A DNA stretch of 64,000 nucleotides from an uncultured cyanobacterium (lineage in GTDB: Bacteria > Cyanobacteriota > Cyanobacteriia > Cyanobacteriales > CAWCAG01). Both the position numbers and the translations under genes were made by a program. Shown here one piece after another: positions 8,371 through 30,675 of the stretch. Every line of letters starts with the position of its first letter. Position 1 is the stretch's first letter. A model generated the notes under the pieces. The model searched no databases. It had not been told where the DNA came from and saw only the letters and a program-made list of their open reading frames with translations. The DNA lies in the NCBI GenBank assembly GCA_963803805.1, contig CAWDOD010000002.1, positions 1,024,001-1,088,000 on the forward strand, given 5' to 3'.

Positions 8371-8389
8371 AAACTATAAAGTATTGAAA

Positions 8390-9367
8390 ATGAAAGACAA
8401 ACTTTTGAGTATTAGACAAAATGGAAAAAAGGGTTATATCGACACTACAGGAAACATAGTTATTCCTTGCCAGTTTGATGGAGGTTCAAGTTTCTCTGAA
8501 GGCTTGGCCGCAGTGAAGGTTGAGGGCAATTATGGTTACATCAACACAAAAGGAGAATGGGCTATTCCTGCCCAATTTGGAAAAACAGTAGGTTTTAGTG
8601 AAGGATTAGCTCTAGTTGCCGTTGGTGATAAATATGGCTACATCAACCAGCAAGGAGAGCTAGTTATACCACCACAATTTGCCTATGAAGATAGTGTACT
8701 CTCTGGCATAGAAGATAATAGATTTTGTCAAGGAAGAGCTTTAGTTAAAGTCAATGATAAGTATGGCTATATTGACTATGAAGGTAACTTAGCTATTCCA
8801 GCACAATTCGATGATGTCTCTTCTTTTTCTGAAAGTTTAGCTGCTGTTAGAAAAGGAGAAAAAGTTGGCTATATAGATAAAAGTGGGCAAGTGGTTATTC
8901 CTTACCAATTTGATAACCCTGGAGTTATCAGCACCATAATAGAACATATTGGTTATAGTTTTCATGAAGGATTGGCTAAGGTAGTCATTGACGGTAAGTC
9001 AGGCTATATCAACCCTCAAGGGGAAATAGTTATAGAACCACAATTTGATGGCTCTTTAGCCTTTTATGAAGGGTTAGCAGGAGTTCAAGTTAGAGATAAA
9101 TATGGTTTTATCGACAGAACAGGGAAAATAGTTATAGAACCAAAATTTGACTCAGTTGCCTATTTTTCAGAAGGATTAGCAGGTGTAAGTACAGGTAAGT
9201 ATAGACGTAAATGTAGTGGCTACATTGATAAAACAGGGGAGATGGTTATACCTGCAAAATTTGATATAGCAGTAGGCTTCAAGTCTGGAGTAGCATCGGT
9301 GTGGATTGATTCAAAGGATGGATATATTAACAAGAAAGGTGAATATATTTGGGAACCAACGAATTGA
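8390..9367 (+). CDS. WG (KWG) repeat protein
   Basis: About eight repeats of F.EGLA.V....K.GYI...G..VI..QFD. Confidence 0.92.
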   Translation: MKDKLLSIRQNGKKGYIDTTGNIVIPCQFDGGSSFSEGLAAVKVEGNYGYINTKGEWAIPAQFGKTVGFSEGLALVAVGDKYGYINQQGELVIPPQFAYEDSVLSGIEDNRFCQGRALVKVNDKYGYIDYEGNLAIPAQFDDVSSFSESLAAVRKGEKVGYIDKSGQVVIPYQFDNPGVISTIIEHIGYSFHEGLAKVVIDGKSGYINPQGEIVIEPQFDGSLAFYEGLAGVQVRDKYGFIDRTGKIVIEPKFDSVAYFSEGLAGVSTGKYRRKCSGYIDKTGEMVIPAKFDIAVGFKSGVASVWIDSKDGYINKKGEYIWEPTN

Positions 9368-9434
9368 AATAAGCTAAATGTTAAGCACATCAGCAATATT
9401 AGAAATCAAATTCGCTTCTGAACAAGTCTGAGAT

Positions 9435-9464
9435 GATTAATGTTGATCCTTTAAGTATGGAGTG
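9435..9464 (+). repeat. 30-bp direct repeat, copy 2 (overlaps the desulfurase stop codon)
   Basis: Identical to 6759-6788. Confidence 0.95.
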
Positions 9465-10638
9465 GTAACATTGGCGAGATTTGCTCCACTGCCTCAGAGA
9501 GAATTGCGGCTGATGTTGCTATTTCTTGTTCAGTAGTAAACTTTCCTAACCCTATTCTTAGGGAACCTTCAATTAAATCCTCTGCTAAATTCATTGCCCT
9601 GAGAACATGAGACGGGGCTACTAATCCAGAAGAACAAGCTGCACCAGTAGAAATAGCAATTTTGTCGCGAACTCTTGCAATGATAGCACTGTTGGGAATT
9701 TCAGGAATGGAAATATGGAGATTTCCGGCTAAGCGAGAATTAGTATCGCCATTAACAACTAAGTTAGGTATTTTTTCTTTTAACAACTGCTGTAATTTAT
9801 CTCGTAAAGTTGCGATCGCCGCTTCATCATCTTTCATTTCTAAGCCTCTTAACCGACAGGCTTCTCCTAAAGCAACAATACCAGGTACATTAAGAGTTCC
9901 TGCTCTTAAACCTTTTTGATGACCACCACCAAATATAATTGGTTCTAAATGGTTCCCTTTTTTGATAATTAATGCCCCTACTCCTTTCGGTGCATACAAT
10001 TTGTGACCAGAAATTGCTAGATAAGTAATTCCCCACCTTGCAAAATCAAGGGGGATTTTTCCTGCTGCTTGAGAGGCATCACAGAGGAAAGGAATGTTAT
10101 ATTCTTGGGCTATTTCAGCAATTTCTTGAACCGGGTAAATATTACCAATCTCATTATTGGCTGCCATGACGCATAACAGAGATAATCCTCCTTGGCAGGT
10201 TTGTTCAAGATGTTCTAAGTCTAATCTGCCTTGAGAGTCAACCTGGAGGCGAATAGTTTGAGCTAATCCTCTTTTTGCGAGGGCCTCGCAAGTGTCTAAA
10301 ACAGCTTTATGTTCCAGGGGAGACAAAGCAATGCGAGGTTTGTTCTTATCACTAAGACGTTTAAGAATAGTTCCTTGAATAGCTAAGTTAATACTCTCTG
10401 TTGCCCCAGAGGTGAAAACAACTTCTTTTGATGATGCCCCGACTAATTCAGCAACTTGGCAACGTGCCTCAGATACAGCCTTTGCTGCTTCGCCACCGTA
10501 AAGATGATCTATGCTGTTAGCATTACCAAATGCAGTAGTCATATAATATAGCATTCGGTCTGCCACTCTAGAGTCTACCGGAGTTGTAGAGTGATAATCA
10601 AGGTAGATTGGGGAATTTTCAGCAACGGTAGAAGTCAT
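9451..10638 (-). CDS. Cysteine desulfurase (IscS/DndA/SspA-like)
   Basis: YLDYHSTTP, FTSGATES.N, PLP-lysine SGHKLYAPKG, catalytic STGAACSSG; last gene of the island. Confidence 0.93.
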   Translation of the reverse strand: MTSTVAENSPIYLDYHSTTPVDSRVADRMLYYMTTAFGNANSIDHLYGGEAAKAVSEARCQVAELVGASSKEVVFTSGATESINLAIQGTILKRLSDKNKPRIALSPLEHKAVLDTCEALAKRGLAQTIRLQVDSQGRLDLEHLEQTCQGGLSLLCVMAANNEIGNIYPVQEIAEIAQEYNIPFLCDASQAAGKIPLDFARWGITYLAISGHKLYAPKGVGALIIKKGNHLEPIIFGGGHQKGLRAGTLNVPGIVALGEACRLRGLEMKDDEAAIATLRDKLQQLLKEKIPNLVVNGDTNSRLAGNLHISIPEIPNSAIIARVRDKIAISTGAACSSGLVAPSHVLRAMNLAEDLIEGSLRIGLGKFTTEQEIATSAAILSEAVEQISPMLPLHT

Positions 10639-10662
10639 AACTTGATTTATCCTAGCTTTGGA

Positions 10663-11625
10663 TTAGCGTCCTTCAGTTTTGATTCGATAGAAAACTTCTG
10701 AATAATTAGGTACAGATAAAGCATAGCGATTAGGAAGAAAATAGAGTAGCCAACGCATCAAAGTTTGCCAAGCTCTTTCAGCATTAAACTCAGGAATACT
10801 CGCACAAGGAAGTAATCTTAATAAATCTCTTACTGCGCCAAATCTCTGGGGAGTTTCAACCAATACATCTACCTTTTGGACAATGGGTTTCTGAAGTAAA
10901 AGAGTGGCGATATAAGCCTCAAAAACTTCTCTGGATAAAGCAGGAATAAGTGGTAGAGATCGCAAGTCTGTTAAGGCTGCTGTTTTAGAGGCTGTAGATA
11001 ATTTTTCTGTCAGTCCAGAATAAGCCAAATATAAGTCTTCGGGATTACGGAGTGTAGGCAACCAAGCATTAGCTGCTACCAAATTGTCAGTAGGTAAAAC
11101 ATTGTTTAAAATTTCTAATTCGCTATGACCTTTAGTTTTGAGTTTAGGATATTTTTCTACTAACAACTGAACCCTATCATAAACTTGTTCATAAATATTT
11201 TTATCAACCAAAAGGCAGTTTTTTAGTAACTCATTTTCAAAGTTCTTGATAGTTGTTTCTTGAGTTGATACAGTTACTAAAACCTCTAAGTTCGGTTGAT
11301 TTGAAATTCCTAAAGCTTTAGCTGTTAAATTAGCTGAACCCACTAAACATTGCTCATCTGCTCGATAATATTTAGCGTGTAAATCGTTTCTTAGCCATAA
11401 AGAGCCATAACGATAAGATTGAATTATCAACCATACTTCTAAATCACTAACTCCAGTTACAATTTCTTCCGGCAACCAACGAGTAACACATTTGATCGTA
11501 ATTTCTGGCTTGATGTCATTGAGAATATTTTTTAAGACCGGAGCTTTGATAAAAGGAGCAGCAAGAACAATTTCTGTTTGGGCAGTTTCGCATAGTTTTT
11601 TGATTTCTAGTCCTATTGAATTCAT
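10663..11625 (-). CDS. Phospholipase D-family (single HKD) nuclease-like protein with unknown C-terminal domain
   Basis: LAAPFIK and LHAKYYRAD...VGSANLT (HxK-x4-D-x5-GSxN). Confidence 0.8.
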   Translation of the reverse strand: MNSIGLEIKKLCETAQTEIVLAAPFIKAPVLKNILNDIKPEITIKCVTRWLPEEIVTGVSDLEVWLIIQSYRYGSLWLRNDLHAKYYRADEQCLVGSANLTAKALGISNQPNLEVLVTVSTQETTIKNFENELLKNCLLVDKNIYEQVYDRVQLLVEKYPKLKTKGHSELEILNNVLPTDNLVAANAWLPTLRNPEDLYLAYSGLTEKLSTASKTAALTDLRSLPLIPALSREVFEAYIATLLLQKPIVQKVDVLVETPQRFGAVRDLLRLLPCASIPEFNAERAWQTLMRWLLYFLPNRYALSVPNYSEVFYRIKTEGR

Positions 11626-11683
11626 TGGCTTATTTCAGGTAATTTTGAGTATTTTACAATCAATAATCAAAAATAGGAGCTAA

Positions 11684-13507
11684 CTATTCATTATCTAAAA
11701 ATCTCCTCGCAATTCTCCCCCAATCTATCCGAGCATCTTGAGCATCATTTTTACGCTTATTATCTGGTTGTTCATCTTCATATCTAGCCCATGCCATTAA
11801 TAATAATTTTAAGCCATCTAAAGAGTTAATTAAGCGAGAACGTAAAGTATCTATATCGCCTTTTTCTACATCTTCTTCCAAAATTTCAACTAAGTTTTTA
11901 TAAGCAGGGTGATCAGTATTTAAAGTAACGATGATTGCTCCTCCTCTAGGTTTAACGGAGAAGAAAGCCGGACTATCAAGAGGAGCCGCAGCAAAGCTAT
12001 ATTTCAAGCCATTTTCTACTATTGTCGCTGCCAATAATTCCGCTTCTTTCTCAGTAACTCCTTCTTCCTTTAAAGTTTGTTGAATTACCTGTTTTCGCTC
12101 TTCTTTCGGTAGTTCTTCATCTTGATCGCTTTTACCTTTGTAGCCTTGTGATTTGCGTTCTCTAGTAACACTGGTAGCTGTTTTGATAGGCTTGTAAGGG
12201 TCATGACGTTTCTCGCTGGTACGAGTACCTTGAGTTTGTGCTTTGAGTAAGCGGCGAATAATGCTTAGTTGACTATTAATTTTATGAGCAAGTTCTAACA
12301 GGGGAAGTTTAGGATCTTCATCTTGGAGCAAGTCTCCTTTAAGTTGAGCAACTGTTTTTCCTTCCTCTAATAAAGATTCAATATCCAGTTGTAAAATTTC
12401 TGCAAAATTACGGGCTGATTGCTTGTTATTCGTCACTCCAAAAATATCATCGAGTGATGGAGGAAACTCAATTTCAATTCCCCACCATCGTTCTGTAGGA
12501 TCATAATTATTAACTAAGTTTTGGTCTAATTCTAATTCTCTTCCGGCACGGACAACAGAAACTCCAATGTTTTTAGAAGCGTGTTGTCCATGAGGCATAC
12601 TTCCAGGATTTTTCCCTGATTCTACTTGACGTGCTTCTTCTTTAGCGTAAGAGAAACGAACTTTTACATCATGTTCTTTCTCTTTAAATTTAATAGTAAA
12701 AGTTGCTTCGTAAGATGTCTCGCCCTGCCAAGGTTGAAACATGGCTTGATTATTAAAAGGTGCAGGGCAAGAGGTATTTTGGATTAAATAACCGGGATCA
12801 TTAGGAAGAGCATTTTTTTCATTAATGACACTGTATAACGCCTCTACATCAAATGTCACCATGCGAATTTTGACCTCATCGCTATTCAGGAATTTGCGGT
12901 ACATTCTACCAATCACAAATTCAGAATTATCAATTATTGCTTTTCCAGTTCGCCAAATGCAACGGTCTATTTTTGACCAAATTACTAATGTGCCGCTATC
13001 ACCAAAATTCTGACTTACTCTTGTCCAAATAGTCGGAATTTGTTTAGTAATAGGTTCAGGAACTTCAGTCATCCGACGACTTTTAATTTCATCTAAGTCA
13101 AGGTAAGTATAAAGAGCCTTTTCTATTCCACTTTGCCATGACCACACATCTACTCTTTGACATTGGGAAATAGAAGAAGATGGTAAACCCATACCAAAAC
13201 GTCCTATTCCAGTATGTTTATTTTCATCTAAATAAGTACCATTGCCGAATTGCAACGCTAGACGCAAAACATCAGCATTCATTCCGCTACCGTTATCTAA
13301 AACTGCTATTTGATGAATGCGAGATCGCCTTTGTTGTCCTACTTGCTGTTTCTTCTCACCGCATAAAAGTTCAACTTGAGCAGCACCTGCTTGAATGGCA
13401 TTATCCATTAATTCGGCGATCGCATAAGCCGCATTTTTATAGCCGTTATCTCGCATGGCTTGAACTGCAAGATGAGCCGGAACGATATCATGGGGGTTGG
13501 TAGTCAT
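11684..13507 (-). CDS. GHKL/MORC-type ATPase (HATPase_c_3-like)
   Basis: GHKL motifs AELMDNAIQA, DNGSGM, GIGRFGMG, GTLV. The ATG at 13507 overlaps the helicase stop (ATGA). Confidence 0.85.
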   Translation of the reverse strand: MTTNPHDIVPAHLAVQAMRDNGYKNAAYAIAELMDNAIQAGAAQVELLCGEKKQQVGQQRRSRIHQIAVLDNGSGMNADVLRLALQFGNGTYLDENKHTGIGRFGMGLPSSSISQCQRVDVWSWQSGIEKALYTYLDLDEIKSRRMTEVPEPITKQIPTIWTRVSQNFGDSGTLVIWSKIDRCIWRTGKAIIDNSEFVIGRMYRKFLNSDEVKIRMVTFDVEALYSVINEKNALPNDPGYLIQNTSCPAPFNNQAMFQPWQGETSYEATFTIKFKEKEHDVKVRFSYAKEEARQVESGKNPGSMPHGQHASKNIGVSVVRAGRELELDQNLVNNYDPTERWWGIEIEFPPSLDDIFGVTNNKQSARNFAEILQLDIESLLEEGKTVAQLKGDLLQDEDPKLPLLELAHKINSQLSIIRRLLKAQTQGTRTSEKRHDPYKPIKTATSVTRERKSQGYKGKSDQDEELPKEERKQVIQQTLKEEGVTEKEAELLAATIVENGLKYSFAAAPLDSPAFFSVKPRGGAIIVTLNTDHPAYKNLVEILEEDVEKGDIDTLRSRLINSLDGLKLLLMAWARYEDEQPDNKRKNDAQDARIDWGRIARRFLDNE

Positions 13508-15141
13508 GGGTTTTTCCTCCAAACGTCTTCCCAATTGTGAAAAGCTGATGCTACTGAAGCAAAACCAGGGAGTTGATTGTCAACAACGGTAACAATTTCA
13601 GCAGTAGCATTTCCCCCAGCTTTAACTCCTCGAATAGCTCTTCCTACCATTTGGCTGTATAGTACGAGGGATTTAGTGGGGCGGGCAATAACTGCTGCAC
13701 TGATTTTTGGGGCATCGAATCCAGTGGTTAAAACGCCGTAGTTACATAAAACCTTGGTTTGAGAGCAATCACTTTTAAAGCTTTGAATCAGCCGTTCCCT
13801 TTCTGGTTTTGGAGTATCCCCGGTAATCGCCTCAGCATTCAAGCCCCTTAAACGCAAAATTGAGGCAATGAGTTGAGTATGGGCAACGGAAGTATTAAAA
13901 ACGATGATACGTTGATGATGATGGGCAAGTTTTTCTAGTTCGAGGATGATGCAGAGGTTTCGTTGTTCATCATCTGCTAGACGATTAAGAATAGATTGGG
14001 GAATGTCTAATTCGGTGTTAATCCGATTTAAGTCTTGGCTACTTAGTTCAATACCTGTTTCATAAAATAAGGAACGATAGTTAGCTTTAGCAAGGTATTG
14101 TTGATCAACTAAATAATCAATGGGGTTGTCATAACCTTCAATTTCTAAGGTAACTTTCTGTTGAGCGAAAAATTTAGCTAGTTGGGCATCGGTGTCAATA
14201 TCTGCCCAGGTGCGTCCTGGTGTGGCGGTTAATCCTAACAAAGCAGTATTTTCGTAGGGAACTACTAATGTATCTAATACCAGTTTATAAGTTTGGGCGA
14301 TCGCTTGATGAGCCTCGTCTATGATTACCAACGAACAACCTACACCTAATTGATTTATGAAGCGAATACTTTTTTTGGCAGCATTATAAACTTTCGCTAA
14401 TCCTGCTACTACTAAGCCATCTTGAGCCTGTTCTAAGTTTAAATCATGGCTACCCCAAAAGCGATAAGTTGAGATGGGGCGATTACCTAAATAATTCCAG
14501 GCTTTTTGAAATTCTGTAACGGCTTGTTCACAAAGTTCTTCGCTGTATGCTAACCAAATAACTAAAGTTGGTTCATTGTTTCTGAGGTGAGTTGCAATAA
14601 TATTCATTGCTGTGCGGGTTTTTCCTGCACCTGTAGGCATATGTAGTAAAACTCGCCGAGGTTCTTGTTGCAGATATTGTTCAACTTTTTTAGCTGCATG
14701 GCGTTGGTGAGTAAATAAAGAGTATTTAGGAGTATTTTCAATAGTTGAAGGAGTTTCAATTGTCTTTTTCTTTCTGGAAGGAAGGGGAGATTCAAAGAAG
14801 TTGAAAAGACATTTTCTAACTTCGTAATTGCCGCCAATTCTAATCTTTTTTAATGCTTGATAAGGGTCTCTATGTTCCGGTGCTTCTAATACAATAGTAA
14901 GGATTTTTGCTTGTTCTGGGGTGATTAAGTCAAATATTAAATTGCGTTTTTCTTTAGATAGTAATAGTTCTTCTGGTTTGTGGAGGCTTAAGAGAATTTC
15001 TCTGAGTTTACTAGGATGAATTAATTTAGGTTCCAAGAGTTTGAGCAATTGAAAGGTGGCACTACCTAATAATTGTTGTAGTGTTTTTTCATCTGCTTTT
15101 GATAGTAAGTCTTTGAAGTTCAAACTTAAAAATAATCCCAA
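13504..15141 (-). CDS. Superfamily 2 DEAH-box helicase (ResIII-like)
   Basis: LLHMPTGAGKT, IIDEAH, GLTATPGR, LTTGFDAP, QMVGRAIRG. Confidence 0.92.
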   Translation of the reverse strand: MGLFLSLNFKDLLSKADEKTLQQLLGSATFQLLKLLEPKLIHPSKLREILLSLHKPEELLLSKEKRNLIFDLITPEQAKILTIVLEAPEHRDPYQALKKIRIGGNYEVRKCLFNFFESPLPSRKKKTIETPSTIENTPKYSLFTHQRHAAKKVEQYLQQEPRRVLLHMPTGAGKTRTAMNIIATHLRNNEPTLVIWLAYSEELCEQAVTEFQKAWNYLGNRPISTYRFWGSHDLNLEQAQDGLVVAGLAKVYNAAKKSIRFINQLGVGCSLVIIDEAHQAIAQTYKLVLDTLVVPYENTALLGLTATPGRTWADIDTDAQLAKFFAQQKVTLEIEGYDNPIDYLVDQQYLAKANYRSLFYETGIELSSQDLNRINTELDIPQSILNRLADDEQRNLCIILELEKLAHHHQRIIVFNTSVAHTQLIASILRLRGLNAEAITGDTPKPERERLIQSFKSDCSQTKVLCNYGVLTTGFDAPKISAAVIARPTKSLVLYSQMVGRAIRGVKAGGNATAEIVTVVDNQLPGFASVASAFHNWEDVWRKNP

Positions 15142-15192
15142 TTAACCATGAATTAATGAACCTGGATTTCAAATTTATTGTATAAAGTGCCT

Positions 15193-16803
15193 CTAACCAG
15201 AGAGAAACTCTAGAATTTCAGCTATTGCTACATTTTGAATTCTTCTTGCTTTAACTTCTCCGATTCCAGAAATTTTGTTAATAATTTCCTGCTCAGGAAC
15301 ATTTAAAACATCTTTTATTAAGTTGAACCCGTTTTCTGTGAGTTTTCTTTTTTGCCAATCTGTTAAACTCAAATCATTAATGGACTTTTGAAGTAAACCA
15401 TTAATAATTTCTTGTATTTTTGAATCGGATTCTAAACTTATTGGATTTGGTAGATTGAGAAAAGCATTGTTATTACGACTATATTCAGTAAATAAATAAT
15501 TATCTAAGTAATCAATTATTTGATTAACAAATTCTTTGGATTTTTCAAGAGCTAAAATACATCCTAACTTGATCTCGTAGCGTGTGCCTATGTTAGATGC
15601 AGTTGCTTTTATTCTTTCTCCGTTTTTTCTGACAATGCCTGTGTATTCTAAAAGTCTTAAAGACTCTTTGACAACTTCAGGCACATCTCTATGAATCCAG
15701 AAATAACAGGTTGATTTTTTATCACTTCTTCTGCGATCGTTCTTGTTCCGAGTTTCAGGAATTACTTTTTCTTCGATAAAGTTTCTTCCCCAATCGACAA
15801 TTTCTCTATGTCCTGTGTATCTTTCACCTAAAGCTGAATGTTCCGACCAAATTTCTGCAATATAAAAGTCCTTAATGAATTTTGATATTGTCTCCCATTT
15901 CAAATTGCTACATTTTTCTAATGCTCTTAATAATATTCTAGGATTTCCACTAGCAGAATAAGCAAGAATTTTAAAATTGCCTTTTTGCTCTTCTATTTTT
16001 TTTATTTTTTCTTGACTCGCTTGTTTATAAACAATCTCCTGCATTATATCTAAATAATCATTGTCTTTATTATTTCTCTCAAGACTTATTAAATCTGCAT
16101 CATGAGATATCTCAAATGAATCACCGAACGAAGTTACCCCAGGATAAACTGCTGCATTGCAATCTATATAAGGGGTTCTGAGTTTTCTAAAGAGAGAAAA
16201 AAACTCTCTTTGTTGTTGTGGTCTAAACATATGAATAGCTTCATCAAAAAGAAAGCATATTCTTTGAATTTTATAAAATTTACATATTTCTTCAATGATT
16301 GACAAAAAGTCTTCAGTTTCAGGGATATCAGAGATTACAGAACTATCAATCTCTTTATCTGAGTTTCGATAAGATTTTTCATATTTTTGCATTATATTGT
16401 TGAATTTCAACTCAAGAGATTCAGTACTTAGATTACTACCAAAGAGTAATTTTGTAGTGGGGACATTTTCTACTAGTAGCCCTTTATATGCAAGCTGCCG
16501 GTAAAGTTCTTTGCAAATTTTAGCCATCATCCAATTCGTAAATTGATCTGGATCATTTGTTTGGATAAGTGTAGTCCTTGATAAACTTAGATATATAGGT
16601 AAAACTTTTTCTGTACTATAATTTTCATTTAACTCTATTTGGCACATTTTTAACAAAAAAGTTTTACCAGTTCCTCTGCTACCTTCCAGAACAGTAGGAT
16701 TTTGTGATTTCAAAGCATGAATAATTTTTTTTTCTAAATCAGTCGAGACAAAAATTCGCTTTATTTCTTCATCTCTAATACTTTCAGTTCTAAGATACAA
16801 CAT
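15193..16803 (-). CDS. P-loop ATPase (ORC/CDC6- or STAND-like) with C-terminal helix-hairpin-helix-like domain
   Basis: Walker A EGSRGTGKT, Walker B FLFDEA, SASGNPR; C-terminal KISGIGEVKARRI HhH-like motif. Confidence 0.75.
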   Translation of the reverse strand: MLYLRTESIRDEEIKRIFVSTDLEKKIIHALKSQNPTVLEGSRGTGKTFLLKMCQIELNENYSTEKVLPIYLSLSRTTLIQTNDPDQFTNWMMAKICKELYRQLAYKGLLVENVPTTKLLFGSNLSTESLELKFNNIMQKYEKSYRNSDKEIDSSVISDIPETEDFLSIIEEICKFYKIQRICFLFDEAIHMFRPQQQREFFSLFRKLRTPYIDCNAAVYPGVTSFGDSFEISHDADLISLERNNKDNDYLDIMQEIVYKQASQEKIKKIEEQKGNFKILAYSASGNPRILLRALEKCSNLKWETISKFIKDFYIAEIWSEHSALGERYTGHREIVDWGRNFIEEKVIPETRNKNDRRRSDKKSTCYFWIHRDVPEVVKESLRLLEYTGIVRKNGERIKATASNIGTRYEIKLGCILALEKSKEFVNQIIDYLDNYLFTEYSRNNNAFLNLPNPISLESDSKIQEIINGLLQKSINDLSLTDWQKRKLTENGFNLIKDVLNVPEQEIINKISGIGEVKARRIQNVAIAEILEFLSG

Positions 16804-16822
16804 GTATTTATATACTCATAAA

Positions 16823-17542
16823 CTATAAAGGTCTTCCTAGTACAACTCTAGTGACTTTTAGATCATCAATATTATTAATTAAACATTCTTCTACCTCTCT
16901 GAGATTCTCTGGAGACAAATCTTGAGAAAATCTAATTACCAGTGAATAAAGTATTATTCTCGAAGTGTTATCACACAACTGTTTCCATGAATTAAATTCA
17001 TCTTGGTTGAATTTTATATGGGATTGATGAGTTTCCCAAGTATAATTACCTCCATGAATATACCCTGACAACTTACGATACGTATCCCTAGCTAATTTGG
17101 CTATAGTTTCATTTTCTTTTTTGCCTTTTTCATCAGGTTCTAAATCTGAGAATGCTCTTAACCAAGTGTCAGAAAAGATACCAATATCTTGGTCTATTAT
17201 CCTTTTCCAGGATATGTCTGCTAAACCTTGTTTCCATTTACGGAAATAAAACTCATCCGAGGAAAACAATATTCCAGATAAAGCCAATTCTAATACTAAC
17301 CTTAGTGAAGCAAATGCTTGTCTATAAAGTCCAGATGATGCTAAAAAAGCTGAGAATTGTAGCTCATACGCTACATTCTCTAAAACTTTCATTCCATTTC
17401 TTTGTGTTTCTAAAATGTTAGACCAGGTTAACAAATCACTTGACAGAACATGATATTTACCTAAGTCTACTTGAGTATGTGAGTCATTAATAATTGAGTT
17501 CAAGTTTTTACAAATTTCAAGATGATAATTTTTTAAATCCAT
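16823..17542 (-). CDS. Hypothetical helical protein, possible HEPN-like RNase
   Basis: YRQAFASLRLVLE helix and YRKLSGYIH (Rx6H) motif; 239 aa; 19 bp upstream of the ATPase. Confidence 0.5.
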   Translation of the reverse strand: MDLKNYHLEICKNLNSIINDSHTQVDLGKYHVLSSDLLTWSNILETQRNGMKVLENVAYELQFSAFLASSGLYRQAFASLRLVLELALSGILFSSDEFYFRKWKQGLADISWKRIIDQDIGIFSDTWLRAFSDLEPDEKGKKENETIAKLARDTYRKLSGYIHGGNYTWETHQSHIKFNQDEFNSWKQLCDNTSRIILYSLVIRFSQDLSPENLREVEECLINNIDDLKVTRVVLGRPL

Positions 17543-17689
17543 AAATTATTTTAAACTAGACAAAAGAACTACCAAGATGTGTTTTACTTCAGGTTTATAG
17601 CTTTGAAATTCAACTTTTATTGAGTATCTGTAACACCCTTCTCTAATTGCTTCAAAATTACTACAACTTGATAAGCCTTATTCGGTAAA

Positions 17690-17840
17690 GGTAAGAGGCA
17701 AAAGAGGCGAGAAGTATTGTATTATGGTATTCCCTAGGAAATTAGCTTGAGAAAAAAGAACTCTCTCATTAGTTACCATAGTAAAGATAGGCCTTTCAGT
17801 ATCAGAGTTAGCCATTATCTAAGCTAAACTTGGCAGCCAT
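17690..17840 (-). pseudogene. Relic of a small cyanobacterial HsdR_N-like restriction-endonuclease-fold gene
   Basis: Minus strand reads IMANSDTERPIFTMVTN-(frameshift)-REFFFLKLIS*GIP*YNTSRLF, resembling the recalled family C-terminus MANP..ERP.FG.VTNG.EF.FLKL...G.PQY..SRLF. Confidence 0.5.
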
Positions 17841-17914
17841 TCAGAAAAAGAAATTAGCATCAGCAGTGCAAACCAAATGAAATTACCACTTTGAACATTT
17901 CAATTAGAAAGAAC

Positions 17915-18715
17915 TTACAAATGGCAAGCTAAACAAGGCAACTCCTCATCTTCTTCATCTAAAACCGACTCCAAAGCTTCAGATAAAGGCCGGTTAGGAG
18001 CAGCTTTTTTGTTCCTGCTCATTGCCTTTTCATGATTAGCAATAATCTCATCTTTGCGCTCCAAAAGTTGTAATAAAGTCTCTCCTTCTGTCCAAGTATA
18101 AGTTCTACCATCTTCATGATTTTGTTCATACTCAATAGCCTTAGCAAACAAATCTGGATGTTCTTGGGCTAGCATCACCCACTCATATTTACGCTGAAAA
18201 AAGCAAAAGAAACAGCCAGATCGGCTACGCCAGCGATAATAGTCTGGTAAGCCAATACCACTATCTTCTAAGATGTTAATAATATCTGCTTTAACCAATC
18301 CTCTTTCCTTAAAAGGAAACACAGGTTTAATATTCGGCTTAGTGGATAAATACCCTTCACGATTTTCATCGGCGCGAATGCCGACATAACTAATTGCTTG
18401 ATCATTGCCGACAAAATCTTCAAAAGGTTTGATTTTCATCTTCACCGTACACCAACGCATTTGAGGTGAAGGTAATAACCCATCATGGATCGTTAACCAA
18501 TGATCAAAACCCCTTTTTGCACTTAAATAGTGGATTTTAATACCTAAGCGGGCTTTAATACGCTCTAAGTATTCGTAAGTTTCTGGTAATTCCTTGTGGG
18601 TGTCACAAAAGAAATATTCCATCTCAGGGATTTCTCTATGTAACAAAATTGCTAAAGCTGTTGAATCTTTGCCCCCAGATAAACCCAGAATATGTCTAAC
18701 TTTTTTTGACAACAT
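17915..18715 (-). CDS. PAPS-reductase-family protein (SspD/DndC-like)
   Basis: PP-loop SGGKDS, RWCT, GIRADE, RSGCFFCFFQ, C-terminal CLACHL. Confidence 0.88.
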   Translation of the reverse strand: MLSKKVRHILGLSGGKDSTALAILLHREIPEMEYFFCDTHKELPETYEYLERIKARLGIKIHYLSAKRGFDHWLTIHDGLLPSPQMRWCTVKMKIKPFEDFVGNDQAISYVGIRADENREGYLSTKPNIKPVFPFKERGLVKADIINILEDSGIGLPDYYRWRSRSGCFFCFFQRKYEWVMLAQEHPDLFAKAIEYEQNHEDGRTYTWTEGETLLQLLERKDEIIANHEKAMSRNKKAAPNRPLSEALESVLDEEDEELPCLACHL

Positions 18716-18799
18716 TGCGGTTGATTTTTATTTCAGAGCTATTACTTATTTTAAAGGTTATTTGCTTGTTTTTTCCTCAATTTTCTTTATTAATGATAT

Positions 18800-18963
18800 T
18801 TTGTATAATAGAAGAACTTAAGGAAGACTATACTATTTATGAGATAGCAGATGAGATTCTACCAATTTTAGATAAATTAGAAAAAGATGATCCAGATAAG
18901 GAGATTCGTACCAAAGTATCTCAGCTTTTAGAAATAATAGAACCTGATGAATGCTGGCATGAC
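18800..18963 (+). pseudogene. Antisense gene fragment, HEAT-repeat-like C-terminus
   Basis: ILPILDKLEKDDPDKEIRTKVSQLL resembles a HEAT repeat; no credible start; lies opposite to the operon. Confidence 0.35.
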
Positions 18964-18978
18964 TAAAGATTTATAAAC

Positions 18979-21900
18979 TCATCCTTGGAGTTCTTTATCT
19001 ATTTTGAAATCACGCTTTGTTTCAAGGTGAACAATATTTTCATTTGAACTAGTAGAGCCATTTAAAATTCTTTCTGTGAGCTTAGTAATTACAGCTTGTT
19101 GCAATTGGGAGTTTTCAGGTAATACATCTAAAACCTTTTCGACTAGTTTATTAACCTGGTTTTCTTGTTCATTATCAACCCAAACTAAGCGATGGGTTTC
19201 TTGCCCATCAGCGTGAGTTACGGTAAGGCGACGGGCTTCAAACCCAACTCCATTAACCGTTGCTTCTTTTTGTAAGGCTTCAAGATTTTGAAACCGTCTT
19301 ACCAAATCTGCAAGCTTACTCTCAAACTGAGTTACGTCTTTATCTGTCCAAGATTCGGCGGGTTTATCGGCTACAATCATCACTAAAGCTTCTAACCACT
19401 CTTTATCTCCTGGCTTCTGATCAGCAGCAGCTTTAGTAAAACGCCGTAAAGTAGGTTCAAGACAATTTTCGACTAAATAATTAGCTCTAACTCGTAAATC
19501 TTCCCGTAGTTTTTGCTCACCTCGACGAACGCCAAAAGCATTGTATAGTAAACTTTGACAATCATTCAACAAACTATCATAAGCTGTGTGTAATTCACGG
19601 ATAACTTGCCCCAGTTTTGCCCGTAATTTTTTGGCAATTGTGCCATCATCAACCTTCTCTGTACTAATAGCAGGTAAACCACAAGCTTGAGGTAGACTAG
19701 TGAACAAGAGTTCATCTGGTTCTACAGTTTCCTGTAAAGCTTCTAAAACAGCTACGGCTTCTGGACTTAATTGTTGCTTAGTTTGTTTTGTGTATTTAGG
19801 AAGTTTACTGGCAAACTGATACAAAGGTGTAACTACCGTTAGTAGAGTAGCATTACGCAGCTTTCTAGATTTTTTAGCTTTGGGATTGCGTAAAATAGTT
19901 TCTAGTTCTTTAAATACTTGAGATCGCAATCCTACAACTTCAAAATATTTGACTGCAAAACGAGAAGGGTTCTTTAGTAGTAATTCAAAATGCTCTATTC
20001 CTAAAATAGGAACAAAAGTACCATCTTGATAAATCCCAACATCATCAAGATGATATAGCAAGATTGCAGCTAATAAAATAGGAATTACCCCCTGTTTTAC
20101 TCCGTAGGGAGGAGCAGCTAAAATTTCATAAAGTTGAGCTAGGTTTTGAGGTTTATCTTTGGCAGCTAAACAAAACTTTTCAATAGCTTGCCACAATGTT
20201 TCTACGCCTGACTGTTTGCTGGGTGGATAAAAATTCTCTTGTTTATGAATTCCTGTTTCAGCTAAAAGAGAATAATAAATGGTAACTTCGGGACCATATC
20301 CTACTAACCCTAATTTCTCTTGATTAGAACACTCTATCATTGCTTCAATGAGTTGTCGCCTCGCCTTTGCTCCTTGGGAAGTAAGCTCTCTACGATTAAT
20401 TAGCTCATTTTGAATAATGGGAGTCTTGTGATAAATGCGATCACAAAGTTGAGAAAGTTTGGCGTTAAATTCGGTAATGTTATTAATGCTTTCCTGTTGT
20501 CCTTCAAACCAACAAATATTACTTTTAGCTGTTAATTTAAAAGCATTTTGTAGGGTTTCATAAAGTAAGTTTTCTGCTCCTACTAAGCGATAACGTACTT
20601 CTCTTCTTGCCACACCATCAGTTTGCAATTCTGAAGCAGTATTCTGAATTTCTTGCAGTGCTGCATACTCTCTAGTTCGGATACGTAGCAAATCTAATTT
20701 AGCAGCAGACAAGATAACTAAGGGCTTGCTATCAGCAGTAAATTGAGGAACAGAAGTAGGTTGATTATCATCTAGCCAATAAACAATTAATCCGTCACTT
20801 TCAGTATTAGAACAGGATAAATCTTTCAAATTACTAGAACTATCTAAGTAACAACGCTCAAAATAACGTAGAGTTCCTATTTGATAACTATGGCGCTGGA
20901 CTACTAAAGGTTTTAAAGGTCTAATTGAAGATAATAAACTGAATAAAGATGAGGAATTTTTATCACGATATTGTGATAGTTTACTGTCTATATTAAAATC
21001 AGAACCTTGCCAAATACGTAGTTCATTTAACTGACGACGGTGGGTAATTAAACCTTTGTGTAGTAGGTTATCAATGATTTGCTCCCAATATTTACGACTG
21101 TCGCTATCATCTGGACTATCACACATTGCTAAAGTAACTACATTACGGCTTGCCCTAGTTACCCCAGTAATTGTAACTAGGTTTAAGATGCCGATAGTTT
21201 TAAGAACTTTGAGAATATCAGGTTCAAGGTATTTAGCATCAGCAATTAAATCCTGAATTTCCACCCATCTTTGTAGATTAGGACGAGATGCTAACCCTAT
21301 TCCTGCTGCTTCTATAAAATAGTCATAAACTCTATCTAATTTCAAAGAAGGTAGAGCATTTGATTCTACTGTAACTTCTTCTAAAAACTTCTTAAATGAG
21401 TAGGGTTCCGAGCTAGTTAAAAAGGTAAACAGAGAGCGATCATTTTGAGCATAGCGATGACAAAGCGTGGGCAAAACCAAGGCAGTAATAGGATGTAATG
21501 GGTAGACTTTCTCGATTATTTCCCTACTTAATTCTTCGCTAACAAGAAGATTGTTCAGGGTGAAACACCATTCTTGGGCTTGATTATTAATAGCACAAGA
21601 GAGAGCTTCTACGTTTTTCTGATTAATAGCTTGGCCAATTAATCGCATCATTTGTCCTGCTGATTCAGTAAAAGCAATATCCTCAAATCTACCCTGAATC
21701 TTTGCCCATTCGTTGAGTTGAATAGAAGCTAATCTTTGACTATAATCAGCAAAAGCTTGATGAAGTATTCCTAAAATATAAATAGGAGTTTGATGATCTT
21801 TTGGTAGTTCAGCAAGTTGCTGCAATAAATATAAGTCTTCTGCCCCTTGATTATAAGCTGCATATTCTAAGTTTTTACCTAACTCATCAATTATCAAAAA

Positions 21901-22488
21901 TATGCCTGTCTTAGAAACTTTCGCTAGTTCTTGTACTAAAGCAGAAACTTCTTTGCCATCAATCTTATTTCCCCTCTCAATTTCTGCTTCTAAGTCTTGA
22001 ATTCGTGAAACAACTGCTAATTTATCACGCTTTGTAGGAGTCCAATATGTTTCTACTCCTCGAACTAAAGCCCGAATAATTGTCTGACTAACTGGTTCCC
22101 TTTGGGCAACACCAACTGCCTGAATATAACCTTTCGTGGGGATATTTAAGCTTAAAGCAAGATATTCAGAACTTTCTTTACCTAAAGCCGTTGCAGAGAT
22201 TTCTAATGCTAGCGATCGCATCTTGCTTTTTGAAGCTGCACATAAAGAAGCTAGATATAGGGCAAAGGCAGATTTACCAGTGCCATAAACGCTAGTTAAA
22301 GTCCACGCATTACTAGCACCTTCTTCTTGTCCCAGCCCTGGTAAAATGCGTCTTAGAGCATCAACAGACCTTTCAGTAAGGATATATCCTGCTAAGGCAT
22401 CTAATTGTTCTAAATCTCGCTCTAAATTAACCGAACGAGAGTAGCGACGATTGAGGCTGAAATATTGAGAAAGTGCTTTATTAGCCAT
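18979..22488 (-). CDS. Large P-loop ATPase (SspC/BrxC-like)
   Basis: RSVNLERD N-terminus, Walker A SVYGTGKS, Walker B LIIDELGK, W.KIQGRF, YPLHP, AQNDRSLF, PPYGVK; directly follows the DUF4007 gene. Confidence 0.82.
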   Translation of the reverse strand: MANKALSQYFSLNRRYSRSVNLERDLEQLDALAGYILTERSVDALRRILPGLGQEEGASNAWTLTSVYGTGKSAFALYLASLCAASKSKMRSLALEISATALGKESSEYLALSLNIPTKGYIQAVGVAQREPVSQTIIRALVRGVETYWTPTKRDKLAVVSRIQDLEAEIERGNKIDGKEVSALVQELAKVSKTGIFLIIDELGKNLEYAAYNQGAEDLYLLQQLAELPKDHQTPIYILGILHQAFADYSQRLASIQLNEWAKIQGRFEDIAFTESAGQMMRLIGQAINQKNVEALSCAINNQAQEWCFTLNNLLVSEELSREIIEKVYPLHPITALVLPTLCHRYAQNDRSLFTFLTSSEPYSFKKFLEEVTVESNALPSLKLDRVYDYFIEAAGIGLASRPNLQRWVEIQDLIADAKYLEPDILKVLKTIGILNLVTITGVTRASRNVVTLAMCDSPDDSDSRKYWEQIIDNLLHKGLITHRRQLNELRIWQGSDFNIDSKLSQYRDKNSSSLFSLLSSIRPLKPLVVQRHSYQIGTLRYFERCYLDSSSNLKDLSCSNTESDGLIVYWLDDNQPTSVPQFTADSKPLVILSAAKLDLLRIRTREYAALQEIQNTASELQTDGVARREVRYRLVGAENLLYETLQNAFKLTAKSNICWFEGQQESINNITEFNAKLSQLCDRIYHKTPIIQNELINRRELTSQGAKARRQLIEAMIECSNQEKLGLVGYGPEVTIYYSLLAETGIHKQENFYPPSKQSGVETLWQAIEKFCLAAKDKPQNLAQLYEILAAPPYGVKQGVIPILLAAILLYHLDDVGIYQDGTFVPILGIEHFELLLKNPSRFAVKYFEVVGLRSQVFKELETILRNPKAKKSRKLRNATLLTVVTPLYQFASKLPKYTKQTKQQLSPEAVAVLEALQETVEPDELLFTSLPQACGLPAISTEKVDDGTIAKKLRAKLGQVIRELHTAYDSLLNDCQSLLYNAFGVRRGEQKLREDLRVRANYLVENCLEPTLRRFTKAAADQKPGDKEWLEALVMIVADKPAESWTDKDVTQFESKLADLVRRFQNLEALQKEATVNGVGFEARRLTVTHADGQETHRLVWVDNEQENQVNKLVEKVLDVLPENSQLQQAVITKLTERILNGSTSSNENIVHLETKRDFKIDKELQG

Positions 22489-22494
22489 TACGAT

Positions 22495-23430
22495 TTATAC
22501 CCACTGCCTCTGAAGACGATAATACTTATCTAGAATATCGTCTGCTAGTTGTTTTGGATTGCTTTTAAAAGAAAGTTGAATTAATCCTGCCGATTCAGAA
22601 ATATCAAGGAAATCATGAGACTGTGCTACTTTTTCTATAGCCTCACAGAGAACAGTTTCAGAAAGTTTGAATGCCAAACCGGGACTACCTATATCGTATA
22701 AGAGTCTCGATATTGCCACTTCTTCTGCACCTTTACTTGCCCAGCTAGCATATTCTAAGCAAGCCGCAACAATAATTTCGGGGGGTAAATTTGCTTTTGC
22801 CCCAGTTTTGAAACTATAACGTTTACTGCTTCGGGCATTTTGGATAATGCCTAATTGTTGAAAAGGACAATCAATAGAGTCTTCTTTAAAACTTGTTTTG
22901 CTCTCTTGTGAACTATACATCCGTAAAATACAAGAAATATCTTTTTTTAAAGAAGATTCAACTACGGTTTTACCTAAAGTGTTTTGCCATTCACTAATTT
23001 CTGTAAGTAACTCATCTGAAGTGAATTCGAGTTTCTTAGATATAAAAAAAGTAAAATACCAAGCAGCAGCTTCACAGGTTGGTTTAAGTAGATTCCAATG
23101 TAATAACCATAAAGAAGCCGGATCTTCAAGAAATGAATCCCAACCATGTTCACCAAAAAGCTGCTTGCCAAATTCAGTCGGGCGCTCTGCTTCTAAAACC
23201 TTAAAACTTCTGCACCAATAACGAATAGAACGTACCATGTTCTTACCCACTCCTAAACGAATAGGTGCATCTTCCCTTTGAAAGATATTTCCATCTTTTT
23301 CTGCCCAGTCAAATCCTTTTTTTAACCAACTAAAACGAGGATGAAAAGTTTCATGCCGAGCAAAGATAGGCTCTACTGGTGCAATTTCTAGAATATCACT
23401 ATCGGTTTGGGAAACAGTTGATGGGGGCAT
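22495..23430 (-). CDS. DUF4007-family protein (SspB-like)
   Basis: FARHETFHPRFSWLKKG, LGVGKNMVRSIRYW, D.FLED..SLWLLHW. Confidence 0.88.
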   Translation of the reverse strand: MPPSTVSQTDSDILEIAPVEPIFARHETFHPRFSWLKKGFDWAEKDGNIFQREDAPIRLGVGKNMVRSIRYWCRSFKVLEAERPTEFGKQLFGEHGWDSFLEDPASLWLLHWNLLKPTCEAAAWYFTFFISKKLEFTSDELLTEISEWQNTLGKTVVESSLKKDISCILRMYSSQESKTSFKEDSIDCPFQQLGIIQNARSSKRYSFKTGAKANLPPEIIVAACLEYASWASKGAEEVAISRLLYDIGSPGLAFKLSETVLCEAIEKVAQSHDFLDISESAGLIQLSFKSNPKQLADDILDKYYRLQRQWV

Positions 23431-23531
23431 TAAATTATAAGGCGTTCATAACTTAGTACTATGATACTAAATTCTCTCAAGCAAATATTTCTAATGCTTT
23501 CTTTCTTAATTAGAATTAATCTAAAATATTA

Positions 23532-24287
23532 CTACACAGCTAAAAAGCGATCAATTACTTCTTGACTCAACTCGCTTGTGGAACCAGAAGCGACAATTCC
23601 TCCTTTTTGCATCGCGTAATAATAGTCAGCTTGACGGACAAAATGTAAATGCTGTTCTACTAATAAAACCGAAATTCCGGTACTTTCAATAATACGACGT
23701 ACTGCCGCTTCAATTTCTAGGATAATGGAAGGTTGAATCCCTTCTGTAGGTTCATCCAAAACTAATAACTGAGGTTTCCCCATCAAAGCACGGGCGATCG
23801 CAAGTTGTTGTTGTTGCCCACCGCTTAAGTCTCCTCCTCGTCGAGAAAGCATGGTTTTAAGCACAGGAAACAAAGCAAAGATTTCTTCTGGTATTTCTTG
23901 CTTACCTTTCCTGCCTTGAGGGCGGGCTTCTAATCCTAATAATAAATTTTCTTCTACTGTCACGCGAGGAATTATTTCTCTACCTTGAGGTACGTAACCA
24001 ATACCCAATCTTGCTCTTTTATCAGTAGCAAGTTTGTCAATAGGTATGCCGGAAAAACTAATAGTTCCTATACGCTGTTTAAGTAAGCCAATAATTGTTT
24101 TTAATAAGGTTGTTTTTCCCACTCCATTACGGCCAATTAAACAAACCATTTGTCCTTTAGGAACACTTAAATCAACATTACGGAGAATATGACTTTCCCC
24201 ATAATAAACGTTCAATCCCGAAACTTGCAGCATCGGCGCCTGCGAAACTTCATCACTTACTGGAACATCAATATTAGTTTGAGTCAT
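23532..24287 (-). CDS. urtE: Urea ABC transporter ATP-binding protein
   Basis: GRNGVGKT, LSGGQQQQLAIAR, DEPTEGIQPSII; operon context. Confidence 0.95.
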   Translation of the reverse strand: MTQTNIDVPVSDEVSQAPMLQVSGLNVYYGESHILRNVDLSVPKGQMVCLIGRNGVGKTTLLKTIIGLLKQRIGTISFSGIPIDKLATDKRARLGIGYVPQGREIIPRVTVEENLLLGLEARPQGRKGKQEIPEEIFALFPVLKTMLSRRGGDLSGGQQQQLAIARALMGKPQLLVLDEPTEGIQPSIILEIEAAVRRIIESTGISVLLVEQHLHFVRQADYYYAMQKGGIVASGSTSELSQEVIDRFLAV

Positions 24288-29282: not shown

Positions 29283-29882
29283 TTAGCTAATTAAATGTAA
29301 TTTGATGAAATTTTCGATTTCGGTTAAACCTTGCTTCGTCTTCAAGTTAGTAAATACAAAAGGTTTTTCCCCTCGCATTTTCTTGGCATCCCTATCCATA
29401 ACAGTTAAATCTGCTCCTACTAAAGGGGCGAGATCGATTTTATTAATCACTAAAAGATCCGACTTGGTAATGCCTGGCCCCCCTTTACGGGGAATTTTAT
29501 CTCCTGCGGCGACATCAATAACATAAATAGTCAAATCCACAAGTTCAGGACTAAAAGTTGCCGCCAGGTTATCGCCGCCACTTTCGAGAAAAACTAGGTC
29601 TAAGTTTTTAAAAACTGTTTCTAGGTTTTCAATAGCACTCAAATTAAGAGAAGCATCTTCACGAATGGCTGTATGGGGACAACCTCCTGTTTCCACTCCT
29701 AGTATGCGATCGCTCTCTAAAGCTTGGGAACGTACTAAAAATTGGGCATCTTCTTGGGTATAAATATCATTAGTTACCACAGCAATTTGATAAGCCCCGC
29801 GCATTGCTTTACAAAGGGCATCTAACAAAGCTGTTTTACCTGATCCCACAGGACCAGCAATACCAATACGAAATGCTGTCAT
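29283..29882 (-). CDS. ureG: Urease accessory GTPase
   Basis: [32 protein letters not shown]. Confidence 0.97.
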
Positions 29883-29962
29883 GTATGGTTGTGATTAAAA
29901 TGATGTGTAGTTTGGGTTACTGGTTTTTGCTAATTGCTAATTGTCAAAATACCAGATGCTTT

Positions 29963-29991
29963 GCGTAGGCAAAGCCCGCCGAAGGCATCGC
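29963..29991 (+). mobile_element. 21-nt small dispersed repeat inserted in a HIP1 site (SDR5-type)
   Basis: GCG + TAGGCAAAGCCCGCCGAAGGC (29966-29986, 21 nt) + ATCGC; removing the 21 nt restores GCGATCGC. Confidence 0.7.
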
Positions 29992-30633: not shown

Positions 30634-30675
30634 GCTGGGGAGTTGAACTAATAAAAGCTAGGAGGCAAACACATT

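Follow-up and report, generated by a model that had tools for sequence, protein, structure and literature searches.

What is the role of the three genes that lie enclosed within a phosphorothioation (PT) gene cluster of an uncultured cyanobacterium? In a 64,000-nt stretch of its contig CAWDOD010000002.1 (the whole of which is hereafter called the window), nine open reading frames (ORFs), all co-directional on the minus strand, occupy positions 9451–23430. Read 5′ to 3′ on that strand, they are sspB, sspC, sspD, a gene for a 239-aa protein, a gene for a 536-aa protein, the genes of a superfamily 2 (SF2) helicase, a MORC-type GHKL ATPase and a nuclease with a single HKD motif (together, the trio), and sspA. 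An earlier examination of the bare sequence (the original prediction) had described this order and orientation, and all nine ORFs were found where it had placed them. The helicase, the MORC ATPase and the HKD nuclease probably constitute a previously undescribed restriction-arm variant of the Ssp system. The broader reading, in which the island would be one PT-based defence system of the restriction-modification type and the trio its ATP-dependent restriction arm, is drawn by analogy, and we regard it as evenly balanced between true and false.

The genes are closely packed. The gaps are 6 nt between sspB and sspC, 263 nt between sspC and sspD, and 372 nt between sspD and the gene of the 239-aa protein. 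The stop codon of the helicase gene overlaps the start codon of the MORC gene in the sequence ATGA. The 6-nt gap and this overlap, both noticed earlier, are real by coordinates and sequence. The ORF of the MORC protein spans 11684–13534; the overlap places its start at 13507, which gives a protein of 607 aa, the same length as its homologues.

Judged by their sequence profiles, the four modification genes are SspABCD. The libraries searched here and below were Pfam, PADLOC-DB 2.0 and NCBIfam (June 2026). The sspB gene (22495–23430, minus strand; 311 aa) encodes a DUF4007 protein (Pfam DUF4007, 6.7e-100; PADLOC SspB, 2.9e-121), which carries the role label of DNA-binding/nicking subunit. The sspC gene (18979–22488, minus strand) encodes a large ATPase of 1169 aa related to BrxC; it has no match in Pfam, and the PADLOC SspC model covers it with 1104 of 1104 profile positions (E=0, 1535.9 bits). 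The sspD gene (17915–18715, minus strand; 266 aa) encodes a sulfur-transfer enzyme of the PAPS-reductase family (Pfam PAPS_reduct, 8.4e-14; PADLOC SspD, 1.2e-115). The last gene of the operon, sspA (9451–10638, minus strand; 395 aa), encodes a cysteine desulfurase (Aminotran_5, 5e-72; PADLOC DndA, 3.8e-138, and SspA, 2.4e-137). The earlier assignment to SspABCD is thus borne out by PADLOC E-values below 1e-115 for all four proteins in one co-directional cluster. The source genome contains a second DUF4007 gene (locus L085, G000:C1:100000-119999, at 8424–9386), whose product is 33% identical to SspB (Pfam, 2e-33). Its neighbours encode a sigma-70 factor, an m5C DNA methylase and proteins of 725 and 225 aa of unknown function, and no SspC or SspD gene is nearby.

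The island had also been called BREX-4-like, and this label has to be given up. The SspC protein scores 1535.9 bits with the SspC model and 470.6 bits with BrxC (2.2e-141), and SspD matches its own model at 1.2e-115 and BrxP at 1.8e-15. Neither PglZ nor BrxL has a match among the nine island proteins in Pfam or PADLOC. Because the Ssp models score far above BrxC and BrxP and because PglZ and BrxL are missing, the island is assigned to Ssp and not to BREX type 4. The accompanying observation that the island holds no SspE, PglZ, BrxL or methyltransferase was correct, since none of them matched the island proteins in the three libraries.

The first member of the trio is a DEAH helicase of the SF2 class (13504–15141, minus strand; 545 aa) of the RadD/Rad25-like type (Pfam ResIII, 1.8e-24; Helicase_C, 4.1e-15; DEAD). 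Its motifs GAGKT and DEAH were read directly and are intact. Its closest relatives are RadD (NCBIfam, 4.9e-41, which is below the cut-off of that model; PDB, 2.7e-22), followed by the SauUSI helicase (3.8e-9) and XPB/Rad25. The PADLOC PbeA model also matches it (1.1e-29), with residues 124–517 aligned on positions 235–627 of the 672 in the profile, i.e., the helicase core only. The N-terminal 123 residues match no assigned fold, and an Atlas search with residues 1–135 gave no score above 0.77. In several Nostocaceae loci (L001, L002, L006, L007, L010, L012 and others), the helicase match begins only at about residue 182–200 and so lacks the Walker A region. An ORF of 463 aa with HTH_3 and HNH_4 domains ends exactly at the start of this helicase fragment, just upstream of the MORC gene; it may be an endonuclease gene that was inserted into, or fused with, the helicase.

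The second member (11684–13507, minus strand; 607 aa) is a GHKL ATPase of the MORC/paraMORC type (Pfam HATPase_c_3, 3e-21). In an alignment of 12 homologues, the GHKL motif residues E32, N36, D71, G73, G75, G102, G105 and G107 are invariant. The only PDB sequences matched by its profile are chains of human MORC2 (best E-value 1.5e-4), which align with residues 29–130 only. Its relatives in the NCBIfam search include MutL.

The third member (10663–11625, minus strand; 320 aa) is a nuclease of the phospholipase D (PLD) fold with a single HKD motif, assigned by its motif and its predicted structure, and it has a predicted C-terminal winged-helix DNA-binding module. Its match to Pfam PLDc_2 (3.5e-5) lies below the Pfam cut-off, and its motif HAKYYRAD...GSANLT, which fits the pattern HxK(x)4D...GSxN of the HKD superfamily, was read directly. 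An alignment of 31 sequences shows no change at H83, K85, S97, N99, N112 or E114, and D90 varies in distant homologues. In the predicted structure (mean pLDDT 91.4), residues 1–150 have the PLD nuclease fold, with SauUSI (Z 15.4), NucT (15.0), Nuc (14.7), BfiI (13.8) and NgoAVII R (11.9) as matches. Residues ~180–320 of the model resemble the winged helix-turn-helix of the ArsR type (Z ~8), N.BspD6I (7.3), BrxA (6.4) and FokI (6.4). The NgoAVII R protein likewise carries its own DNA-binding domain, which is B3-like instead of winged-helix. Two other assignments were rejected on their scores: DrmC of DISARM (24.7 bits against an NCBIfam cut-off of 133) and MzaB of Mza (76.9 bits against 850). 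A predicted complex of the MORC and HKD proteins (score 0.00, mark 0.32) speaks neither for nor against an interaction.

If the trio belongs functionally with SspABCD, its genes should keep company with ssp genes elsewhere. From contigs of one genome per species, 80 loci containing the MORC gene were taken, and the nine window proteins were mapped onto them; 46 of these loci have at least 8 kb of DNA on both sides and are referred to as full-flank loci. The helicase gene lies directly upstream of the MORC gene in 67 of the 74 loci that have enough upstream DNA. SspB, SspC or SspD is encoded in 36 of the 46 full-flank loci, all three in 25 and none in 10, and a strong SspA homologue is present in 24, where mapped mostly downstream of MORC. 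The usual order is SspB-SspC-SspD-(slot)-helicase-MORC-nuclease-SspA, in which the slot is a position of variable content. A convergent order, with the ssp genes facing the trio, was found in Bacteroidota, Ignavibacteriota and several Pseudomonadota. Therefore, the linkage has outlasted rearrangement. The Ssp-linked MORC sequences belong to eight phyla (Cyanobacteriota, Chloroflexota, Acidobacteriota, Rhodothermota, Pseudomonadota, Armatimonadota, Ignavibacteriota and Bacteroidota). In a quick MORC tree, rooted at its midpoint for drawing only, the full-flank sequences without Ssp genes form one Microcoleus clade and three singletons nested among the linked sequences; the tenth such locus (L061), with a broken MORC gene, was left out of the tree.

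On plasmids, SspBCD genes stand beside helicase, MORC and PLD genes in five of the six MORC-bearing cases inspected, down to a MORC identity of 41%. The five are Planktothrix agardhii p2, Trichormus variabilis ATCC 29413 plasmid A, a Hymenobacter plasmid, Roseobacter pROLI83 and Mesorhizobium pOM4. The association known to the original prediction from a single locus is thus conserved around the ssp genes (36 of 46 full-flank loci, eight phyla, five of six plasmids), well above what chance would give, and it extends beyond cyanobacteria. In Planktothrix p2 (L086), a DUF2779 protein is encoded between the MORC and PLD genes (15938–17401), and the locus is otherwise like that of the window. Plasmid A of T. 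variabilis (L090) carries the full system with a DndB-like protein in the slot, and a neighbouring gene on the opposite strand is annotated as 'DNA phosphorothioation-associated putative methyltransferase'.

In a neutral, even sample of 401 cyanobacterial genomes, SspB was matched in 36 (28 near full length) and MORC in 13 (11 full length). Among the 11 genomes with a full-length MORC gene, SspB lies no more than 20 kb away on the MORC contig in nine and on an abutting contig in G218; G396 has none. Conversely, the MORC gene is present in 10 of the 28 genomes with a near-full-length SspB. These counts bear on the possibility that the trio serves modification or upkeep, by processing or repairing the nicks made by SspB or by scanning DNA for SspBCD, and has no part in restriction. 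The nearest named relative of the helicase is the repair helicase RadD, the relatives of the MORC protein include MutL, and the trio is placed inside the modification operon. However, 18 of the 28 genomes with SspB have no MORC gene, the HKD domain is most like the restriction nucleases SauUSI, BfiI and NgoAVII, and in the available text of PMC8092258 the characterised Ssp systems need no more than SspABCD or IscS-SspBCD for DNA modification. We consider such a role very unlikely.

The distribution of the nuclease gene is consistent with restriction. The HKD gene is present in 18 of the 36 Ssp-linked full-flank loci and in none of the 10 loci without Ssp genes (Fisher p 0.0036), six of the 10 being members of one clade. 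The six loci that have an HKD gene and no visible Ssp gene all have less than 4.3 kb of upstream DNA. If the nuclease is harmful to cells that lack the mark, the two should be lost together, and the absence of the HKD gene from Ssp-less loci fits this expectation. In the Nostoc loci that lack the HKD gene, a 149-aa HNH endonuclease is encoded between MORC and sspA (from protein clusters and Pfam), and in other loci without it an SspE or HNH_4 protein is present. Both the joint loss of the mark and the nuclease and the exchange of the nuclease at the same place fit a restriction arm.

The two modules also vary together. The correlation of distance matrices is 0.68 for MORC with SspC and 0.80 for the helicase with SspC, against 0.79 for MORC with the helicase and 0.82 for SspC with SspD within their modules. 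All the values across modules (MORC or helicase with SspC or SspD) lie between 0.60 and 0.80, and none of 1000 permutations reached any of the observed values. The close packing of the operon, with its ATGA overlap, and the intact catalytic motifs also speak for the restriction-arm reading.

Several results weigh against a PT-dependent restriction arm. Of the 36 Ssp-linked full-flank loci, 18 have no HKD gene. Open, full-length helicase-MORC pairs with neither Ssp nor HKD genes in 20 kb are found in Microcoleus (L036, L039, L042, L043, L045 and L052; 63–67% identity), and L026, L048 and L072 also have the pair and lack both; G396 has a MORC gene and no SspB match in the whole genome. The pair is therefore not strictly tied to PT. 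Plasmid pAtCFBP7129b of Agrobacterium tumefaciens (L088), the sixth of the plasmids inspected, encodes a 41% identical MORC protein and a helicase-related protein and has no Ssp genes; it may represent a different MORC-based system. As related genomes are not independent, the Fisher p-value and the Mantel values are overstated, and the modules may co-vary in part because their hosts have common ancestors. No PT-reading domain was identified in the island proteins. The C-terminal part of the HKD protein is assigned in its model to the winged-helix fold class only, with middling Z-scores (6.4–8.1), and the idea that this module was borrowed from SspB was rejected, since it finds no support in sequence (hhalign probability 0.3%, family against family). 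In L042, a class V aminotransferase gene lies directly upstream of the helicase-MORC pair. In L088, the next genes encode three hypothetical proteins and then a 1836-aa protein with an FtsK/SpoIIIE domain.

The pairs without Ssp genes might suggest that the trio is an autonomous, modification-independent defence system merely nested in Ssp loci. The same loci house other nested cassettes (HEPN+ORC, SspE, GIY-YIG+GHKL), and in G122 one of these, HEPN+ORC, occurs by itself with ribosomal protein genes as neighbours. However, the trio lies between sspD and sspA in one operon, its linkage has been kept in eight phyla and in two gene orders, and its distances follow those of SspC as closely as those of SspD do. 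No full-flank locus has the HKD nuclease without Ssp, and nine collinear loci have nothing else between sspD and the helicase gene. On this balance, we consider autonomy unlikely.

In the preferred reading, that of a restriction arm directed by the mark, the parts would act as follows. SspABCD would write single-strand PT marks on the host DNA, a role taken from published work on their homologues. The HKD nuclease would bind DNA through its winged-helix module and would probably dimerise to form one HKD active site, as do Nuc and BfiI. A dimer of the MORC protein may act as an ATP-driven clamp or matchmaker, like MutL between recognition and nicking, and the RadD/Rad25-like helicase would translocate or unwind from the entry site. 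DNA without PT would be cut, and the PT-marked host DNA would be spared. The analogies are drawn from the structural matches (SauUSI and NgoAVII) and from PMC2292703 as far as its available text goes; the enzymology of these enzymes and of MutL is general background. The analysis shows what the genes are, that their linkage is conserved, which folds the domains have and that the catalytic motifs are intact. Dependence on PT, the formation of a complex and the direction of discrimination are what we infer; gene context and analogy suggest that self DNA carries the sulfur mark and that DNA without it is the target of the trio.

The discrimination may also work in the manner of SspE. The trio would then be coupled to PT in such a way that the PT of the host stimulates the ATPases and licenses the nicking of incoming DNA in trans, and it would be inert without PT. 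SspE itself works so, according to the available text of PMC8092258. True SspE is encoded in one operon with the trio in six of 38 collinear loci, so both modes may coexist, and the persistence of intact helicase-MORC pairs without Ssp genes fits a non-toxic arm. On the other hand, the absence of the HKD gene from all 10 Ssp-less full-flank loci fits a dangerous nuclease better, and the trio contains no sensing domain of the DUF262 type in Pfam or PADLOC searches. This mode appears distinctly unlikely to us.

The remaining two genes of the island occupy the slot between sspD and the helicase gene. The first (16823–17542, minus strand) encodes a HEPN-like protein of 239 aa, so called for an R-x6-H pair and for fold matches; it has no match in the three profile libraries, and its residues R156-x6-H163 are invariant in 17 sequences. 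Among the six best VIA matches of its predicted structure (pLDDT 81), five are named HEPN domains, with Z-scores of 8.4–9.7 that are in the chance range for helical bundles; the second-ranked match is a protein of unknown function. Foldseek gave nothing at E <= 0.001 for this model, and an Atlas search gave unnamed clusters with DUF5677/DUF6988 on 11–22% of their members, which is a lead only. Homologues are named from Nostoc sp. PCC 7524, Nodularia, Okeania and Planktothrix. The second gene (15193–16803, minus strand) encodes an ORC/Cdc6-like AAA+ ATPase of 536 aa with a C-terminal helix-hairpin-helix (Pfam ORC-CDC6-like, 1.7e-14). Its Walker A (GTGKT) and Walker B (FLFDEA) motifs are intact; it has a weak match to the RAD51 N-terminal domain, and its homologue in G122 matches RNA_pol_A_CTD.

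These two genes had been listed as an insert. They are instead a recurrent cassette in a variable slot of the sister loci. The pair occupies the same slot in G218, where the two proteins are 33% and 49% identical to those of the window while SspD is 85% identical, and in the Planktothrix plasmid p2; in G122 the pair adjoins the ribosomal protein genes mentioned above. The G+C content is 0.30–0.31 at the gene of the 536-aa protein against 0.35–0.42 around it, and no boundary repeats were found around the pair. The ORC-like ATPase and the HEPN-like putative RNase may together form an autonomous back-up cassette lodged in the slot. Among the 38 collinear loci in which the content between sspD and the helicase gene was surveyed, the slot is empty in nine and holds the 463-aa HTH+HNH_4 protein in seven, true SspE in six, DndB-like proteins in another six and a second GHKL ATPase, mostly with a GIY-YIG protein, in five. 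Another HATPase is found in two loci, and the HKD gene, a diadenylate cyclase and small unknown proteins in one each. In L019, the slot protein matches the PADLOC SspE model at E=0 with 1203.6 bits. The diadenylate cyclase, in Xenococcus sp. PCC 7305 (L040, 8821–9981), has a DACNK sensor domain (1.3e-50) and takes both the slot and the position of the helicase; in the same locus, a LAGLIDADG endonuclease gene splits the sspC-sspD region.

Taken together, the observations would be accommodated by a widespread, unnamed restriction arm of Ssp, found in about one third of the sampled cyanobacterial Ssp genomes and in at least eight phyla. In it, with a logic like that of MutL, the winged-helix HKD nuclease would read PT, the MORC clamp would couple it to the RadD-like motor, unmarked DNA would be cut, and the slot would exchange second-line effectors (SspE, DndB-like, GHKL+GIY-YIG, ORC-like+HEPN). 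This composite picture falls, in our estimate, slightly short of an even chance. If true, it would describe a modular, multi-layered PT immune island and explain part of the 'orphan' sspBCD loci. The system is testable: all of its parts are encoded together on the Trichormus (Anabaena) variabilis ATCC 29413 plasmid A, and Planktothrix, Hymenobacter, Roseobacter and Mesorhizobium likewise have them on small plasmids.

The surroundings of the island can be described briefly. The original prediction had placed it between priA and urtE. Urt-type ABC transporter genes do flank it from 23532 onwards, but priA (4309–6789), on the other side, is not adjacent, as three plus-strand genes intervene. Next to sspA on the opposite strand (8384–9367), a 327-aa protein with eight WG-containing beta repeats is encoded (Pfam WG_beta_rep, 3.4e-87). 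The HIP1 octamers reported earlier at 9812, 13416, 14297 and 22212 are all present. The window contains 24 of them against 0.16 expected, and their density in the island (4 per 14 kb) is about the window average. A promoter and terminator scan was at the level of shuffled sequence (40 against 42.6 expected and 8 against 9.9 expected), and Rfam has no match within 9000–24000. About 8 kb past the island, a second defence-like cluster (29283–34521) contains two Uma2-family genes (30058–31251; PADLOC PDC-S17, 1e-64, and PDC-S03, 1.7e-32), a gene for a 605-aa protein with DUF262 (GmrSD_N) and Schlafen AlbA_2 domains (31849–33666; PADLOC NsnA, 2.8e-24, not SspE) and one for a PD-(D/E)XK nuclease (33733–34521).

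Has this arm been described before? The available text of PMC8092258 defines SspFGH, states that 83.9% of 2,678 sspBCD modules have neither sspE nor sspFGH nearby, and asks about other partners; the helicase-MORC-HKD module, present in 10 of the 28 cyanobacterial SspB genomes, is a candidate for part of this gap. A 2025 review (PMC12707154), in its available text, names only dndFGH/sspFGH, sspE and pbeABCD as restriction branches. Full-text literature searches gave no description of Ssp or PT linked to a MORC/GHKL ATPase, with the limit that genes of this kind may appear in the supplementary neighbourhood tables of PMC10853773 and PMC12839542 and in Table S2 of PMC8092258. As far as the available texts extend, MORC, GHKL and PLD occur nowhere in the main text of PMC10853773, MORC and GHKL nowhere in PMC12839542, and helicase and HATPase nowhere in PMC12914056; PMC12137116 concerns the unrelated GHKL-Shedu, and PMC3632139 and PMC3506569 have MORC in their reference lists only. 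No NCBIfam or PADLOC-DB 2.0 model claims the helicase, the MORC protein or the nuclease, and the RefSeq names on the plasmids are only 'DEAD/DEAH box helicase', 'ATP-binding protein' and 'phospholipase D family protein'. Within the literature searched, this would be the first bacterial MORC-type ATPase tied to a mark on the DNA backbone, which bears on how MORC proteins read epigenetic state.

Comparison with known systems places the island more precisely. None of the named effector sets to which the trio was compared (SspE, DndFGH and PbeABCD) claims it. PbeABCD is similar in that its PbeA resembles the helicase core and both are linked to PT genes. According to the available text of PMC10853773, PbeA is an HKD domain fused to a helicase and is accompanied by a CxC ABC ATPase, a DndE cognate and a small protein. 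In contrast, the helicase of the island lacks the N-terminal HKD domain, and the nuclease and the MORC protein match no PbeB, PbeC or PbeD model. PbeABCD was therefore rejected, as PbeA covers the helicase core only, with residues 1–123 unaligned, and no ABC ATPase or DndE match was found in the island. Models of DndF–H match none of the trio. Those of SspF, SspG and SspH, which the PADLOC library should contain, gave no match at E <= 10 with the nuclease, the MORC protein and the two slot proteins, and they are not among the best 25 of 40 PADLOC families for the helicase. In the available text of PMC8092258, SspF is a Walker A protein and SspH is FtsK-like, which sets them apart from the trio, with its RadD-like helicase, its GHKL ATPase and its HKD nuclease; no FtsK-type Pfam domain occurs in the island. 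CglI/NgoAVII and SauUSI, which are NTP-dependent restriction enzymes, also combine an HKD nuclease of the PLD fold with an SF2 helicase-like motor. They differ in that the island adds MORC as a third subunit, has no detected Z1 domain and pairs with PT instead of base methylation.

The closest precedent for the trio is found in the MORC neighbourhoods of Iyer, Abhiman and Aravind (2008; PMC2292703), which in the available text combine a GHKL/MORC ATPase, a Rad25-like SF2 helicase and an HKD nuclease. MORC, SF2 helicase and nuclease neighbourhoods were predicted there to be laterally mobile restriction-modification systems that loop or clamp DNA between recognition and cleavage. Their pairing with methylases is a precedent that supports the restriction-arm reading. 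The partner is a cytosine or adenine methylase in those neighbourhoods, whereas here it is SspABCD and Pfam finds no methylase domain in the island; furthermore, in the island the HKD domain is encoded apart from the helicase, in a protein that brings a winged-helix module of its own. Neither PAPS nor Dnd is mentioned in the main text of PMC2292703 as available. The claim of an undescribed system thus stands in part: the pairing of Ssp with MORC is unnamed in the literature searched, but a module of MORC, SF2 helicase and nuclease was itself predicted in 2008. With SspABCD-SspE and SspABCD-SspFGH, the island shares the modification module and the use of exchangeable or stacked restriction partners, and true SspE occurs in the operons of sister loci. 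SspE, in which DUF262 (GmrSD_N) is combined with a C-terminal HNH/DUF1524 domain, is matched by no island protein, with L019 as the positive control. The modification module is therefore known and the class of the restriction module was already predicted, while their pairing and the slot architecture are apparently new to description.

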